Part shown: positions 21,003 through 27,628 of the stretch, one piece after another
Numbering within the stretch: the stretch's first letter is position 1
How the letters are laid out: the number at the start of each line of letters is the position of its first letter
Source of the DNA: Patescibacteria group bacterium
Lineage (GTDB): Bacteria > Patescibacteriota > Minisyncoccia > Phycocordibacterales > CAIRYW01
DNA length: 31,327 bases
Assembly (NCBI GenBank): GCA_030917145.1
Contig: JAUPVJ010000041.1
Location: 1 to 31,327, forward strand
Direction of reading: 5' to 3'
Notes under the pieces: generated by a model
The model's input: only the letters and a program-made list of their open reading frames with translations
The model's database searches: none
What the model was told of the DNA's origin: nothing
Program-made: the position numbers and the translations under genes

Positions 21003-21608
21003 ATGAGTGAAAGCTTTTTGATCGGAATAGACGAAGCAGGGAGAGGGCCACTGGCCGGACCTGTAGCTATCGGGCTTTTTAAAATCAACAAAGGATCTTT
21101 AAAAAAAGGTTTTTTTGAGAAAAATTTTCCTGGGCTTAAAGACAGCAAGAAGCTTACCGAAAAAAAACGAGAAGAGTTTTTTATCAAACTACAATCTTTT
21201 AAAAAAGATGGAATCATTGATTTTTCAGTTTCTTTAATTTCAGAAAAAATCATCGACCAAAAAGGAATTTCTTTTGCTATAAAGCTCGGAATAGAAAAAT
21301 GTTTGAAAAAAGTAAAAGCTCAAAGTAAGGACGAAATTCTTTTAGACGGAGGACTTAAAGTTTCTCCACTTTTTAAGAATCAAAAGACGATCATAAAAGG
21401 AGACGAAAAAGAGCCTACAATCTCACTTGCTTCGATTTGTGCCAAAGTCACTCGCGACAGGTTCATGAAAAAAGAAGCTTTGAAATACCCCGATTTTGGG
21501 TTTGAGGTCCACAAAGGCTATGGTACTAAGAAACACAGGGAATATATTGAAAAGTTAGGACTCACGAAAATCCACAGAAAAAGCTTTTGTAAAAAGGTTA
21601 GGGTTTGA
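21003..21608 (+). CDS. rnhB: Ribonuclease HII
   Basis: [53 protein letters not shown]. Confidence 0.97.
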
Positions 21609-21618
21609 GCCTTCAAAT

Positions 21619-21646
21619 TTGCCAGATTTTTCTCTTTGTGTATACT
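21619..21646 (+). promoter_or_regulatory. Promoter of rpmF(-nusB-rnc)
   Basis: TTGCCA-16-TATACT; ATG 9 nt downstream. Confidence 0.6.
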
Positions 21647-21655
21647 GTAAATATT

Positions 21656-21865
21656 ATGGTAGTAAGAATGCGACACACCCGGTCACATACCGGCAATAGA
21701 AGAAGTCACCACGCTTTAAAGGCTACGGTCTCAAAGCTGTGTGAAAACTGTGGAAACCCAAAACTTCCGCATGTTGCCTGTGGTAACTGTGGGACCTATA
21801 AAAAGCGGGTAGTTGTTGAAGTTGTTACAAAAGCCGAGAAAAAAGCATCTAAAGCAAAAAAATAA
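21656..21865 (+). CDS. rpmF: 50S ribosomal protein L32 (zinc-ribbon form)
   Basis: [36 protein letters not shown]; start revised to ATG 21656. Confidence 0.95.
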
Positions 21866-21873
21866 AAGTATCG

Positions 21874-21908
21874 TCCCGAAAGGGAATTAAAAAATAAGTT
21901 CTTTAATA
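21874..21908 (+). promoter_or_regulatory. boxB-like GAAA hairpin plus boxA overlapping the nusB start codon
   Basis: tccc-gaaa-ggga (21874-85); GTTCTTTAATA (21898-21908) matches the boxA consensus GYTCTTTAANA, and its last A is the A of the ATG. Confidence 0.7.
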
Positions 21909-22810
21909 TGGCCACTAGGCACCTCTCGAGATCAGTAGTTTTACAAACAATATTTGAGTGGGATTTCAAAGATAAACCCGAAGCCTCTTTTGATGTTGAA
22001 CTAAAAAGAAACCTAGACGAATTCGCTCCAGGTTCTACAGACTTTCCTTTTATAAAAAAATTAGCGGACGGAGTACAAAAGAAATATAAAGATTTAGATA
22101 AAATCATTTCAAAAGCTGCTCCTGATTGGCCTCTAGAAAAAATCGCAAATGTCGACCGAAACGTTTTACGTATCGGTCTTTATGAGCTTCTGTTTTCTGA
22201 TCGTGGAGAAGTGCCGCCAAAAGTTGCGATCAACGAAGCTATTGAGCTTGCAAAAACTTTTGGAGGAGAAACTTCCGGGCGTTTTGTAAACGGAGTTCTT
22301 GGTGCGGTGTACAAAGAACTTGGAGAACCAGGAAAAGAACAAGAATCAAAAAGAAAAAAACTTCCAGAGGTTGCTTTTGAAGACATGGAAATTGAACGAT
22401 TGGTTGGAGCTGTAGTTTACGCTCGCGATGCTCAAAATATTTATCTCGCTTTGGTGCATGACATTTTTGGTCACTGGACTCTTTCAAAAGGGCATAACAA
22501 AGAAAACGAATCAGATGAAGATGCTGTGGTCCGAAAAGTAGAAGAAGAGATGGGGGTTAATGTTCTTCCTGAAGACAAGCTCGGATCAAACGAATATGTA
22601 GCAACGCTCCCAGAAAAAGGCAAAGTACGAAAACAAGTAAATTACTTTTTAGCAAAAACAGATTTTAAAGATTTGAAGCTCGGAGAGTCTGGAGGGCTAG
22701 ATGATGCAAAATGGTTTAAGATTACAGAAATTTTAGATCTAAATTTTTATGACGATATCTTGCCGATAGTTACAAAAGCAATTGGAATCTTAGCATCTAA
22801 GAAGAGCTGA
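21908..22810 (+). CDS. nusB: Transcription antitermination factor NusB fused to a C-terminal NUDIX domain
   Basis: RHLSRSVVLQTIFEWD, DRNVLRIGLYEL, VAINEAIELAKTFG..SGRFVNGVLG; then HWTLSKG..G-x5-E-x7-RKVEEEMG. Confidence 0.92.
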   Translation: MATRHLSRSVVLQTIFEWDFKDKPEASFDVELKRNLDEFAPGSTDFPFIKKLADGVQKKYKDLDKIISKAAPDWPLEKIANVDRNVLRIGLYELLFSDRGEVPPKVAINEAIELAKTFGGETSGRFVNGVLGAVYKELGEPGKEQESKRKKLPEVAFEDMEIERLVGAVVYARDAQNIYLALVHDIFGHWTLSKGHNKENESDEDAVVRKVEEEMGVNVLPEDKLGSNEYVATLPEKGKVRKQVNYFLAKTDFKDLKLGESGGLDDAKWFKITEILDLNFYDDILPIVTKAIGILASKKS

Positions 22811-22817
22811 TTTAAAA

Positions 22818-22885
22818 GTATTTAGTATGTCGTATATAGTATTTGGTATTTATACTTAATACTATATACAAAATACTACATACTA
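22818..22885 (+). repeat. Inverted heptamer-periodic array forming a long hairpin in the rnc leader
   Basis: GTAT at 22818/25/32/39/46 and ATAC at 22852/59/66/73/80; 22823-22850 pairs with 22858-22885 (24 of 28 positions). Confidence 0.8.
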
Positions 22886-22893
22886 TTCACACA

Positions 22894-23580
22894 ATGAATA
22901 CAGACATAATCGAAAAAAAAATAGGAATAGTTTTTAAAGACAAATCTCTTTTGGAGAAGGCTTTTACACACCGCTCTTACTTAAATGAAAACAGAGGTCT
23001 TGGTCTTGAACACAATGAACGTCTAGAGTTTTTAGGAGACGCTGTTTTGGAGCTCGTGGTTACAGACTTTTTGTATAGAAAATATCCAAAAAAACCAGAA
23101 GGGGAAATGACTTCTCTGCGGTCAGCTTTGGTAAACTCTACAATGCTTGCGGAAATTTCAAGTTCTCTAAATTTTAGTGAGTACCTACTGCTTTCTCGTG
23201 GTGAAGCAAAAGACAAGGGAAGAGCAAGACAGTACATCTTGGCAAATACTTTTGAATCAGTCGTTGGGGCAATTTACCTTGATCAAGGTTATGCTGGAGC
23301 AGATAAATTTATTGGAGAATTTCTTTTGCCCAAAATCACAGAAGTAGAAGAAAAGCGCCTTTGGATAGATGCAAAAAGTTTTTTCCAAGAACAAGCTCAA
23401 GAAAAATTTGGTTCTACTCCTCAATATAAAACTCTAAAAGATCACGGTCCTGACCATGACAAGGTCTTTACTGTTGGTGTATTTATCGGCGAAGATCTAA
23501 TCGCTGAAGGAAGTGGAAAAAGTAAACAAGATGCAGAACAAGAAGCTGCGAGGAGTGCACTAGACAAAAAAGGATGGTAA
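22894..23580 (+). CDS. rnc: Ribonuclease III
   Basis: AFTHRSY, NERLEFLGDAVL, EGEMT, ANTFESVVGAIYLD, dsRBD (GPDHDKVF, GKSKQDAEQEAA). Start revised to ATG 22894. Confidence 0.97.
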   Translation: MNTDIIEKKIGIVFKDKSLLEKAFTHRSYLNENRGLGLEHNERLEFLGDAVLELVVTDFLYRKYPKKPEGEMTSLRSALVNSTMLAEISSSLNFSEYLLLSRGEAKDKGRARQYILANTFESVVGAIYLDQGYAGADKFIGEFLLPKITEVEEKRLWIDAKSFFQEQAQEKFGSTPQYKTLKDHGPDHDKVFTVGVFIGEDLIAEGSGKSKQDAEQEAARSALDKKGW

Positions 23581-27096: not shown

Positions 27097-27124
27097 TTGA
27101 CAGGGATTTGAAAAGGGTTAATAT
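27097..27124 (+). promoter_or_regulatory. Promoter of orphan unit 1
   Basis: TTGACA-16-TAATAT. Confidence 0.6.
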
Positions 27125-27130
27125 TCGACT

Positions 27131-27300
27131 TGGTAGACACTCAGTGGCGAAAGACGATCCCTTTGGCCGTCCCAGGATTGTTCCAGTGAGAGGTTCTTTA
27201 CTTGTCGGTAGTCGACAGCGGCTAACTAGCGATTGCCTATAGGTCTGAGAACCTTGTTTACTAAGACGCTTCCGGAGGGTTTCCTCTGGAAGCGTCTTTC
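27131..27300 (+). ncRNA. Candidate structured small RNA (or 32-codon GTG micro-ORF 27144-27242) with its own promoter and terminator
   Basis: Helices ctcagtgg/ccagtgag, gacgatcc/ggattgtt, aggttct/agaacct, tgtcg/cgaca; ends in a 16-bp hairpin at 27263-27298. No known RNA family recognised. Confidence 0.4.
27263..27298 (+). terminator. Strong hairpin ending orphan unit 1
   Basis: aagacgcttccggagg-gttt-cctctggaagcgtctt (one G-U), followed by a U-rich tail. Confidence 0.8.
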
Positions 27301-27303
27301 ACT

Positions 27304-27331
27304 TTGACTAAATTTTGTTTTAGGGTATTAT
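27304..27331 (+). promoter_or_regulatory. Promoter of orphan unit 2
   Basis: TTGACT-16-TATTAT. Confidence 0.6.
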
Positions 27332-27337
27332 CCTTTT

Positions 27338-27628
27338 CGGCATAAACGGTTAGGGCGCAGACAAACCACCAAAGTGAAATATCTGGAAGTGGTCCTGCAT
27401 TTAGGGTTCGATTCCCTTAGACCGGATCGAGAAATAGTTCTTTGTACCCAGTATAGGTTGGGAGACTACGATATTCCAGTTTCGGCTGGGGTTGAGTCGC
27501 AAATGTAATACCACCTGCAAGGAATGAAAAGTATCCACGCTATCAAAGCTTCGGCTGAGACGAACGGCGGTCTTTTCAAGATTATTGCTAAGCCGGTCGA
27601 TGGCAACATCGACCGGCTTCTCTCTTTT
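27338..27628 (+). other. Orphan transcription unit 2: 44-codon GTG ORF (27374-27508) and/or RNA with a T-loop hairpin
   Basis: Bounded by a promoter and a terminator. ORF MKYLEVVLHLGFDSLRPDREIVLCTQYRLGDYDIPVSAGVESQM; aggg-TTCGATT-ccct at 27403-17. Confidence 0.4.

Follow-up and report, generated by a model that had tools for sequence, protein, structure and literature searches.

The window analysed here, a stretch of 31,327 nt from the genome of a Patescibacteria group bacterium (G000 in the following), contains the gene cluster rpmF-nusB-rnc, and the 42-nt spacer between rpmF and nusB holds both the boxA-like motif GTTCTTTAATA and, upstream of it, the small hairpin tcccgaaaggga (Table 1). 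The cluster is conserved in relatives: in 58 of 59 loci nusB is preceded by the L32 gene, and in all 59 it is followed by rnc. The NusB domain of the fusion protein encoded by nusB is canonical as judged by NCBIfam TIGR01951 (124 bits against a cut-off of 88), and alignment to solved NusB indicates that RNA-contact residues are kept or conservatively changed (F122 retained, E81 replaced by D, K121 replaced by R). Since the N-terminus of the product aligns with the MANRHLSRS start conserved in all relatives, the start codon of nusB is firm. It is possible that an rpmF-nusB transcript begins at the promoter-like site just 5' of rpmF, and the site scan found no terminator-like site between the two genes. 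Parts of the stretch are contained in 20 sequencing runs, all as contigs, with small shares in the RNA-labelled runs. An RNA-library contig from one of four sequencing runs compared covers positions 21537-21745 (these are assembled contigs, without transcript ends or strand), a second contig, from a run whose RNA origin is a guess, spans 21775-21996 and bridges the spacer with no listed change within 21866-21907, and a DNA contig (21642-22314) shows no change in the spacer among those listed. Because contigs reveal neither transcript ends nor strand, they are no evidence of co-transcription or expression.

Table 1. Features at and around the rpmF-nusB spacer (positions in the window)
Feature	Position	Strand	Remarks
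Promoter-like site TTGCCA-16-TATACT	21619..21646	+	Just 5' of rpmF; consensus scan, 10/12 matches; pattern match only
rpmF (ribosomal protein L32)	21656..21865	+	Pfam Ribosomal_L32p 4.5e-15; gene 5' of nusB
Hairpin tccc-GAAA-ggga (tcccgaaaggga)	21874..21885	+	4-bp stem, 12 nt 5' of the motif; status uncertain, not conserved
Full 11-mer GTTCTTTAATA	21898..21908	+	Exact match to GYTCTTTAANA; last A is the first base of the nusB ATG (21908)
boxA core GTTCTTT	21898..21904	+	Part kept in relatives; equivalent to the nucleotides read by NusB-NusE
nusB-NUDIX fusion ORF, 300 aa	21908..22810	+	Pfam NusB 1.1e-34, NUDIX 8e-12; presumed regulator and regulated gene
Promoter-like site	22811-22840	+	Just 5' of rnc; consensus scan
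rnc (RNase III)	22843..23580	+	Pfam; gene 3' of nusB

A sequence-only reading of this DNA had recognised an exact boxA overlapping the nusB start codon, and the 11-mer is indeed present with its final A being the A of the ATG. The exactness, however, refers to GYTCTTTAANA, the boxA consensus defined for gamma-proteobacteria (PMC5725501) against which the motif was scored, whereas the rrn boxA in relatives of this lineage reads differently, namely GTTC[G/C]TTGAAA. The core GTTCTTT ends 3 nt 5' of the ATG in this genome. On its own, the 11-mer string is not significant, because about one match per window is expected by chance: the single exact match found on both strands compares with a mean of 0.64 in shuffled windows (49 of 100 shuffles contain at least one), and when one mismatch is allowed there are 8 matches in the window versus 14 expected. 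The whole MAG (574 kb) contains 10 exact matches to the consensus. Its 43 occurrences of the 8-mer core GTTCTTTA include 38 inside predicted ORFs, and of the five copies outside ORFs only the one at nusB directly precedes a gene start. What is beyond chance, as judged by comparison of sequences, is the position directly before nusB together with the conservation in relatives.

Conservation of the motif upstream of nusB had been set beforehand as a check, and it is found: the boxA core is the most enriched word there, and no other block of the spacer is conserved. A de novo word count in 30 relatives, covering 100 nt 5' of each nusB gene, ranks GTTCTTTA first among 8-mers (11/30 versus 0.12 expected) and GTTCTTTAA first among 9-mers (8/30 versus 0.04 expected). 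Given that related genomes are not independent, these and the following enrichment figures make independent events appear more numerous than they are. Across the class, 29 of 152 genomes have GTTCTTT between -60 and +4 relative to the start of nusB (1.6 expected); left out of this count were genomes in which only C-terminal fragments matched (G004, G034), those without a NusB match (G007, G077, G100), and those with nusB at the contig start (G108, G137, G139). The core is found before nusB in 13 of 86 families, and in the family of G000 it is present in 13 of 19 genomes, with three further genomes exhibiting the variant GATCTTT. When 59 loci with their flanks (210 kb) are considered, GTTCTTTA occurs 21 times on the sense strand, 15 of these at -48 to -10 from the nusB ATG, and 11 times on the antisense strand with none of the latter within the spacer, so that all spacer copies have the sense orientation. 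Within the family, GTTCTTTA is the sole block conserved at a level of at least 70% from the rpmF stop codon to the nusB ATG while its distance to the ATG ranges from 8 to 51 nt, and this combination of a conserved block with a variable distance points to selection on the motif itself.

In the 29 genomes with the core, the motif-to-ATG distance is 7-55 nt, and 14 of them have a motif that starts 7-16 nt ahead of the start codon. Its distance from the rpmF stop codon (22 ± 11 nt) is roughly as constant as that from the nusB ATG (29 ± 17 nt). Positions following the core are less conserved (A at position 8 in 19/29, A at position 9 in 16/29 and T at position 10 in 16/29). In the published crystal structure of NusB-NusE-BoxA, the proteins recognise eight nucleotides, the last of which is the final U of the U-run, and none of the bases beyond it (PMC3177189); the conserved 7-mer GTTCTTT coincides with the bases read by NusB-NusE, and positions 8-11 vary. 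The element is patchy in its distribution, being absent from 123 of 152 genomes in the class, 3 of 19 in the family and G003, which belongs to the same genus, and it is thus dispensable. In other classes of the phylum, the GYTCTTT core was encountered before nusB in one of 26 loci viewed, as GCTCTTTAATC located 4 nt 5' of the ATG.

Comparison with other genes shows how closely the core is linked to nusB. It is absent upstream of rpsJ (0/30) and of rnc (0/59 loci), is found upstream of rpmF in 2 of 57 loci, and does not occur before nusG, nusA or the suhB-like genes of three genomes. In G000 only 3 of 603 genes carry GTTCTTT in the 64 nt upstream, and GTTCTTTA is found there solely at nusB.

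The boxB-like GAAA hairpin, which the earlier reading had placed before the motif, is present in the sequence and separated from GTTCTTTAATA by 12 nt (attaaaaaataa), but it is neither conserved nor part of the predicted fold. Shuffling of the 42-nt spacer produces a 4-bp stem of any composition in 63% of cases, but a GC-rich one in only 0.6%. The hairpin (21874-21885) lies outside the minimum-free-energy fold of positions 21860-21940; since shuffled versions of these 81 nt fold equally well (z = -0.57), we propose no structured leader. Among the nusB spacers, the hairpin occurs in G000 and the 98% identical G002 only, with the loop in G002 being AAAA and not GAAA, so that a stable, adjacent hairpin which is conserved or covarying, as would characterise boxB, was not found at nusB among the relatives. 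A search of Rfam over the window yielded no family at gathering score and, near the site, only chance-level matches at E-values up to 10.

Neither G000 nor any of four genomes of its genus contains a 16S contig, and the comparison with rrn leaders was therefore made with other relatives only. In 14 of 17 such leaders, boxA reads GTTC[G/C]TTGAAA or a variant thereof, that is, 1-3 bases off the nusB site; further forms are GTACTTTGAAA and GTTTTTTGA[AC]A. The rrn boxA of relatives thus features G rather than A at position 8 and often a base other than T at position 5, and the nusB site is nearer to the E. coli consensus than to these rrn sites. It is plausible that one NusB protein binds both the nusB site and the rrn boxA. 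The rrn leaders of relatives from the family exhibit a hairpin of 6-10 bp located 1-3 nt before boxA, with a GAAA loop in two of them, which confirms the order of boxB followed by boxA that had been assumed for rrn leaders. The nusB site resembles this signal in that it has the same core word on the sense strand and, in the G000 spacer, is likewise preceded by a small GAAA hairpin. It differs in that (i) it is situated ahead of a start codon, in the spacer of an mRNA, and not in a pre-rRNA leader, (ii) 12 nt separate it from the hairpin, against 1-3 nt in rrn leaders, and this hairpin comprises 4 bp only and is not conserved, (iii) position 8 is A and not G as in the rrn sites of relatives, and (iv) no boxC-like block follows.

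The lineage seems to lack Rho: the RNA-binding domain of Rho (Rho_RNA_bind, PF07497) was detected in none of 21 relatives, 18 of which are at least 90% complete, and in 9 of 14 reference genomes serving as a control. NusA and NusG are present in all five genomes checked, G000 included. S10 was identified in 38 of 41 relatives and not in G000, which is 72% complete; an Inositol_P (SuhB-like) homologue was identified in three of five genomes checked, and neither in G000 nor in G001, the latter being 100% complete. Shine-Dalgarno-like 4-mers precede 25 of 604 genes as compared with 53 of 604 in the control window, and none of the 16S tails of relatives contains CCUCC. Without the use of Shine-Dalgarno pairing, initiation must rely on an accessible start region. 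A role of the motif as an rRNA-pairing enhancer was considered and rejected: AAAGAAC, which would pair with the core, does not occur in the 16S rRNA of 12 of 13 relatives and its single match falls within an inserted stretch, nor does the motif complement the unusual 3' tail of the 16S rRNA. The earlier suggestion that NusB could gate transcription into rnc finds no support, as such gating in the manner of E. coli suhB needs Rho (0/21) and a promoter-like site precedes rnc.

We consider it probable, with some reserve, that the site is a boxA mimic through which NusB, probably together with S10, represses its own translation. GTTCTTT(AAT) in the rpmF-nusB spacer would then be a copy of the rRNA-leader site recognised by NusB and S10. 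Whenever NusB(-NUDIX)/S10 exceeds the nascent rRNA available, it would bind to the site on the rpmF-nusB mRNA, and the bound NusB-S10, being inside the ribosome landing zone, would block initiation at nusB and so establish a negative translational autoregulation. That the landing zone would be occupied follows from the core being located 3 nt from the ATG and from the lack of Shine-Dalgarno pairing. Simple occlusion of the start codon cannot be the general mechanism, however, because the distance between motif and ATG varies from 7 to 55 nt; in relatives having the site 22-55 nt upstream, either a looped complex of Nus factors and RNA polymerase, as was proposed for E. coli suhB, or a weaker repression may be envisaged. 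No Rho step would follow repression, since the lineage seems to be devoid of Rho. From comparative sequence analysis we infer that the site is bound, that the effect is negative and how it comes about. What had been read overall as Nus autoregulation is hence retained with respect to a motif that is conserved and specific for nusB, but not with respect to boxB and the Rho-based gating of rnc.

It is tempting to speculate further that the NUDIX half might act on RNA tethered through boxA, with the NusB half docking on both pre-rRNA and its own mRNA. In such a scenario, with Rho and Shine-Dalgarno pairing both lost from the lineage, boxA would be a general address tag and no longer an antitermination signal, and the NUDIX half might, for example, remove a 5' pyrophosphate as RppH does and thereby trigger 5' processing or decay. 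We regard this extension as quite improbable.

Among the alternatives to autorepression, the one that survives best is a conserved cis-element of the spacer which resembles boxA by coincidence and would serve in the processing or stability of the RNA, for instance by marking where an RNase separates the rpmF and nusB messages, or as the site of another RNA-binding protein. Single-stranded U-rich motifs are common targets of RNases and other proteins, the similar constancy of the motif relative to the rpmF stop codon and the nusB ATG would fit a 3'-UTR or processing element, the motif is 1-3 positions off the rrn boxA of relatives, and rnc sits downstream. However, the hairpins near the nusB site are too short for RNase III. 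Moreover, the conserved 7-mer is the very core read by NusB and not a generic A/U-rich word, the downstream gene encodes the very protein that binds such sites, the motif was not found in the other spacers tested, and pairing with rRNA as an enhancer is precluded by the absence of the core complement from the 16S rRNA of 12 of 13 relatives. We thus deem a coincidental resemblance unlikely, if still worth bearing in mind.

Unlikely, too, and next in order, is a genuine boxA that acts positively by loading the Nus complex onto RNA polymerase in rpmF-nusB-rnc, in the manner of rrn operons, where it would accelerate elongation or suppress pausing and termination across nusB, rnc and further on. 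All evidence for the identity of the motif as boxA applies equally to such an element, 58-59 of 59 loci retain the cluster, which encodes rRNA-related functions, and a terminator-like site between rpmF and nusB is missing from the scan. Yet Rho, the main target of Nus antitermination, was detected in 0/21 relatives, the transcription unit is short with a promoter-like site before rnc, and the location of the motif on or beside the start codon in 14 of the 29 genomes (7-16 nt) resembles that of a translational operator. In addition, the sole mRNA boxA that has been characterised, the one of suhB, represses (PMC5725501).

A signal acting at the level of DNA, that is, a promoter -10 element (TTTAAT) for nusB or a transcription-factor operator, appears very improbable. 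TTTAAT does fit the -10 consensus at five of six positions and the motif is situated in an intergenic spacer, but a -10 element located 7-16 nt before the ATG, as in 14 of the 29 genomes, would place the transcription start inside the conserved N-terminal codons, and the identity as a -10 promoter element is rejected on this geometry. Furthermore, many variants (GTTCTTTAT, GTTCTTTC, GTTCTTTT) spoil the -10 element while keeping GTTCTTT, the promoter scan reports no site there, and the motif is strictly confined to the sense strand. Likewise disfavoured, and scarcely credible in our view, is the absence of any function, i.e., a chance match that kinship has preserved in an A/T-rich spacer: the relatives are kin and chance predicts one exact match per window, but the 8-mer is kept where its flanks have diverged beyond alignment, the motif recurs in 13 families at differing spacing, and control regions of the same loci give 0-2 matches.

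Autorepression of nusB would have conceptual counterparts in the autogenous control of operons for ribosomal proteins and ribosome biogenesis by mimicry of rRNA sites, as is known for S15, L20 and the L4/S10 operon. As in those operons, the proposed scheme has an RNA-binding protein with (pre-)rRNA as its primary target occupy a look-alike site where translation of its own mRNA begins, once rRNA becomes limiting. In contrast to these cases, the mimic would be a short single-stranded word of 7-8 nt and not a folded structure, and the regulator would be a transcription and assembly factor fused to a NUDIX domain.

With respect to Nus factors, boxA-mediated translational repression of the Nus factor gene suhB has been described for E. 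coli and Salmonella, and boxA was predicted before rpsJ and ribH-nusB in gamma-proteobacteria, usually at one Nus gene per genome (PMC5725501). According to the main text of that study, which covered 940 gamma-proteobacterial genomes, boxA does not occur directly 5' of nusB and is found only before ribH in the ribH-nusB operon of six Pseudomonas species; its supplementary list of 407 putative sites might add cases (PMC5725501). The site described here shares with the suhB system (i) the location of boxA within 50 nt upstream of the start of a Nus-factor gene (0-3 nt in the present case), (ii) the proposed outcome, which is translational repression by the Nus factors themselves, and (iii) the restriction to a single Nus gene per genome, with rpsJ, nusA, nusG and suhB-like genes being without a site. 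Several features set it apart. The regulated gene is nusB, and the site touches the start codon, whereas repression of suhB is stated not to occur by Shine-Dalgarno occlusion (PMC5725501). Repression in E. coli needs the full Nus complex including SuhB, whereas no SuhB homologue was found in G000 or G001. The present lineage belongs to a different phylum with tiny genomes of 0.5-1 Mb and is without a Shine-Dalgarno system; the sequence of repression and subsequent Rho-dependent termination that characterises the suhB type finds no counterpart, with PF07497 being detected in 0/21 relatives. In agreement with the sequence-only reading, which knew of no such regulation in CPR, we found no description in the literature of a boxA in CPR or 5' of nusB. 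As read here, the site is a new putative variant of boxA-mediated Nus autoregulation in a lineage apparently without Rho or Shine-Dalgarno sites.

Feedback on Nus factors through boxA had previously been shown for suhB in enterobacteria and predicted within gamma-proteobacteria only; the present site would extend it to nusB and to ultra-small genomes that are far from the model organisms. It provides a natural system in which to ask what role complexes of NusB, S10 and boxA play when there is no Rho to antagonise, and how translation initiation is controlled without Shine-Dalgarno pairing. For annotation, Patescibacteria can be searched for a small motif defined as GTTCTTT within the rpmF-nusB-rnc cluster, no more than 60 nt ahead of nusB. 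The site also offers a concrete and short candidate RNA ligand for the biochemistry of the NusB-NUDIX fusion. If the reading of boxA as a tag for this fusion were true, the boxA at the nusB start would be a translational operator and a decay tag at the same time, and would link the Nus machinery to the chemistry of RNA 5' ends.

The boxA-like motif at 21898-21908 lies on a contig (C41) that is one of 85 in a 574-kb MAG, 72% complete and with 37% G+C. The spacer that holds it reads ...cg-tccc-GAAA-ggga-attaaaaaataa-GTTCTTTAAT-ATG, exactly as the sequence-only reading gave it, and the nusB start codon is secure since the N-terminus aligns with the MANRHLSRS conserved in every relative examined. 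As a bare string, the motif is no more than chance: chance alone would give 0.64 matches to GYTCTTTAANA per window, at least one turns up in 49 of 100 shuffles, and the MAG has ten exact copies, both strands counted. The core 8-mer GTTCTTTA has 43 copies there, 38 of them within predicted ORFs, and only the nusB copy directly adjoins a gene start.

Features around the nusB start, by position in the window
Feature	Position	Remark
rnhB	21003-21608	
promoter-like site TTGCCA-16-TATACT	21619-21646	ahead of rpmF; pattern match only
rpmF (L32)	21656-21865	
rpmF-nusB spacer		42 nt
NusB-NUDIX fusion	21908-22810	300 aa
promoter-like site	22811-22840	ahead of rnc; pattern match only
rnc	22843-23580	smc also in neighbourhood

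A pattern scan found no terminator-like site between rpmF and nusB, and the rpmF-nusB-rnc order is kept class-wide, with L32 upstream in 58 and RNase III downstream in all 59 of the nusB loci considered (from L001-L090). Public RNA libraries yielded nothing but contigs, which do not inform on expression. Because the -10-like TATACT box ends 9 nt 5' of the rpmF ATG (window 21619-21658), the rpmF transcript may have little or no leader. Farther along, a stretch of ∼500 nt at 27097-27625 has no long plus-strand ORF, opens with a promoter-like TTGACA-17-TAATAT, and contains two terminator-like GC hairpins (∼27262-27300 and ∼27590-27625) as well as the tRNA-like T-arm word GGTTCGATTCC near 27404-27416. 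ARAGORN predicted neither a tRNA nor a tmRNA anywhere in the window, and for this stretch, which possibly encodes one or two unrecognised small RNAs, Rfam gave nothing better than chance-level matches.

NusB was found in 40 relatives. Among sampled genomes it was located in 119 of 121 for the class and 122 of 131 for the phylum, and nusB upstream regions were compared for 152 distinct class genomes. When the 100-nt stretches preceding nusB in 30 relatives were searched with no prior motif, GTTCTTTA ranked first among 8-mers (11/30 versus 0.12 expected) and GTTCTTTAA among 9-mers (8/30 versus 0.04). Within -60 to +4 of nusB, GTTCTTT occurs in 29 of the 152 class genomes, spread over 13 of 86 families, versus 1.6 expected from its frequency in the MAG; as kin are not independent, such enrichment ratios overstate the number of events. 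Conservation upstream of nusB, which the sequence-only reading had itself set as the test of its proposal, is thus borne out. In 210 kb of sequence from 59 loci, each taken with its 1.5-kb flanks, GTTCTTTA occurs 21 times on the sense strand, 15 of these at -48 to -10 from the nusB ATG; the 11 antisense copies all fall outside the spacer. In the source family, 13 of 19 genomes carry GTTCTTT, three more GATCTTT and three neither, one of these being a same-genus genome; in the alignment of the 19 spacers, no block but GTTCTTTA reaches 70% conservation from the rpmF stop to the ATG. The distance from motif to ATG varies from 7 to 55 nt (7-16 nt in 14 and 22-55 nt in 15 of the 29 motif-bearing genomes), and in other classes of the phylum the GYTCTTT core was seen in only one of 26 loci viewed (GCTCTTTAATC, 4 nt before the ATG). 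Since flanks have diverged and spacing has varied, selection appears to act on the word itself, and we are confident that the element upstream of nusB is real and under selection. In some genera, AAAGCTAA-type repeats recur in the spacers, including between boxA and the nusB ATG.

At other genes, GTTCTTT precedes rnc in none of the same 59 loci and rpmF in 2 of 57, and the 110 nt before rpsJ are free of the motif (at most one mismatch to GTTCTTT[AG]A) in all 30 relatives. Nor did nusA, nusG or the suhB-like genes of 3 genomes show one upstream. Within the MAG, 3 of 603 predicted genes have GTTCTTT in the 64-nt upstream window, namely nusB, a pilin-like gene and an unknown gene, and GTTCTTTA precedes nusB only. 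Every tuf-rpsJ spacer viewed in relatives (L184-L213) contains a hairpin or palindromic repeat; the S10 start in the rpsJ loci apparently lies 19-34 codons ahead of the Pfam domain, giving a K/T-rich extension, with the choice of start codon provisional.

Neither the MAG nor its genus has an assembled 16S gene. Of 17 leaders from other relatives, 14 carry a boxA-like block (GTTCGTTGAAA, GTTCCTTGAAA, GTACTTTGAAA or GTTTTTTGA[AC]A) 95-320 nt before 16S; the nusB site differs from these by 1-3 bases and, oddly, is the more canonical. In family rrn leaders, boxA follows a hairpin of 6-10 bp at a distance of 1-3 nt, the loop being GAAA in two genomes, so that the boxB-then-boxA order invoked by the sequence-only reading is real there. 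These leaders (L034-L047) run from a -10-like TATAAT through hairpin and boxA to a later conserved AGTGCAAG-like block and a TTTGTTCCGTTC-like block directly before 16S, candidates for the boxB, boxA, boxC and processing-stem element of the lineage. A boxB at nusB itself is not supported: the boxB-like hairpin at 21874-21885 resembles that of rrn leaders, and a GC-rich 4-bp stem arises in just 0.6% of shuffles of the A/T-rich spacer, but it sits 12 nt from the motif, is absent from the predicted fold and occurs only in the MAG and a 98%-identical relative, with an AAAA loop in the latter. It was not counted as a boxB on these grounds of distance, fold and lack of conservation.

The crystal structure paper has the NusB-NusE heterodimer reading 8 nt of BoxA, the last being a U at the NusB-NusE interface, with nucleotides past this U not relevant to recognition (PMC3177189). 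Among motif-bearing genomes, positions 8-11 of the motif are variable. If the interface U corresponds to the last T of GTTCTTT, as we assume from known boxA sequences, the conserved part would be the part that NusB-NusE reads and the variable one the part it ignores. The site could instead be another cis-element that resembles boxA by coincidence, for instance one for RNA processing or stability, or one bound by another protein; its spacing from the rpmF stop, which is roughly constant (22 ± 11 nt), and the mismatch between nusB and rrn sites speak for this reading, which we nevertheless consider unlikely.

The NusB domain scores above the NCBIfam equivalog cut-off and, when aligned with E. 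coli NusB, retains F122, with E81 replaced by D and K121 by R. NusA and NusG are encoded in the MAG; S10 is present in 38 of 41 relatives and was not found on the assembled contigs of this 72% complete MAG. An Inositol_P (SuhB-like) gene occurs in three of five genomes checked and was found neither in the MAG nor in the complete genome of a relative (G001). NusB carries a C-terminal NUDIX domain, and roughly half of the class sample has nusB open frames of ∼290-340 aa, the others ∼145-200 aa. In the translation, the Nudix box has RK where RE is usual, and the domain scores below the cut-off of every NCBIfam NUDIX subfamily.

For suhB, autoregulation of Nus factors through boxA is established, and boxA control has been predicted for rpsJ and, in six Pseudomonas species, for nusB via ribH; the main text of that study, covering 940 gamma-proteobacterial genomes only, reports no boxA directly before nusB (PMC5725501). 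A 2026 paper shows binding of B. subtilis NusB to an rrn sequence resembling boxA, and a term search of its text turned up no mention of autoregulation (PMC13753749). Full-text literature yielded only an unrelated water-microbiota paper for boxA in CPR, Patescibacteria or Parcubacteria, and one unrelated paper for the nusB upstream region, leader, mRNA or autoregulation. The view that boxA at nusB had not been described in CPR is therefore upheld: within the literature searched, there is no account of the boxA that this lineage has next to nusB, and boxA-mediated Nus autoregulation itself is already known.

In the suhB mechanism, translational repression is followed by Rho termination as a second step (PMC5725501). 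The Rho RNA-binding domain (PF07497) was found in none of 21 genomes (among G000-G028, the MAG and relatives), of which 18 are 90% complete or more, and the same search was positive in 9 of 14 reference genomes, these being the nine reference bacteria expected to have Rho. There is hence no basis for a suhB-type Rho step or for the suggested gating of transcription into rnc. That the site is a true boxA with a positive, antitermination-like role seems rather improbable; a promoter or operator, rejected mainly by the geometry of the site, and an element without function are both very hard to credit.

SD-like 4-mers at -20 to -4 precede 25 of 604 genes of the MAG, fewer than in a control window, where 53 of 604 have one. 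In relatives (L031-L060), the 3' tail of 16S reads GGAATATTTCA-like where alignment with the E. coli tail would place the anti-Shine-Dalgarno CCUCC. The organism does without Shine-Dalgarno pairing, a loss of the anti-SD having already been published for a Parcubacteria subgroup (PMC9297842). Translation initiation would then depend on an open start region, so that a NusB/S10 pair on the motif, 3 nt before the ATG, should directly block the 30S subunit, and genomes with the site 22-55 nt upstream might use the looped Nus-RNAP model proposed for suhB or be under weaker control. We lean, with some reserve, towards the motif being a boxA-type NusB/S10 site through which nusB would negatively regulate its own expression.
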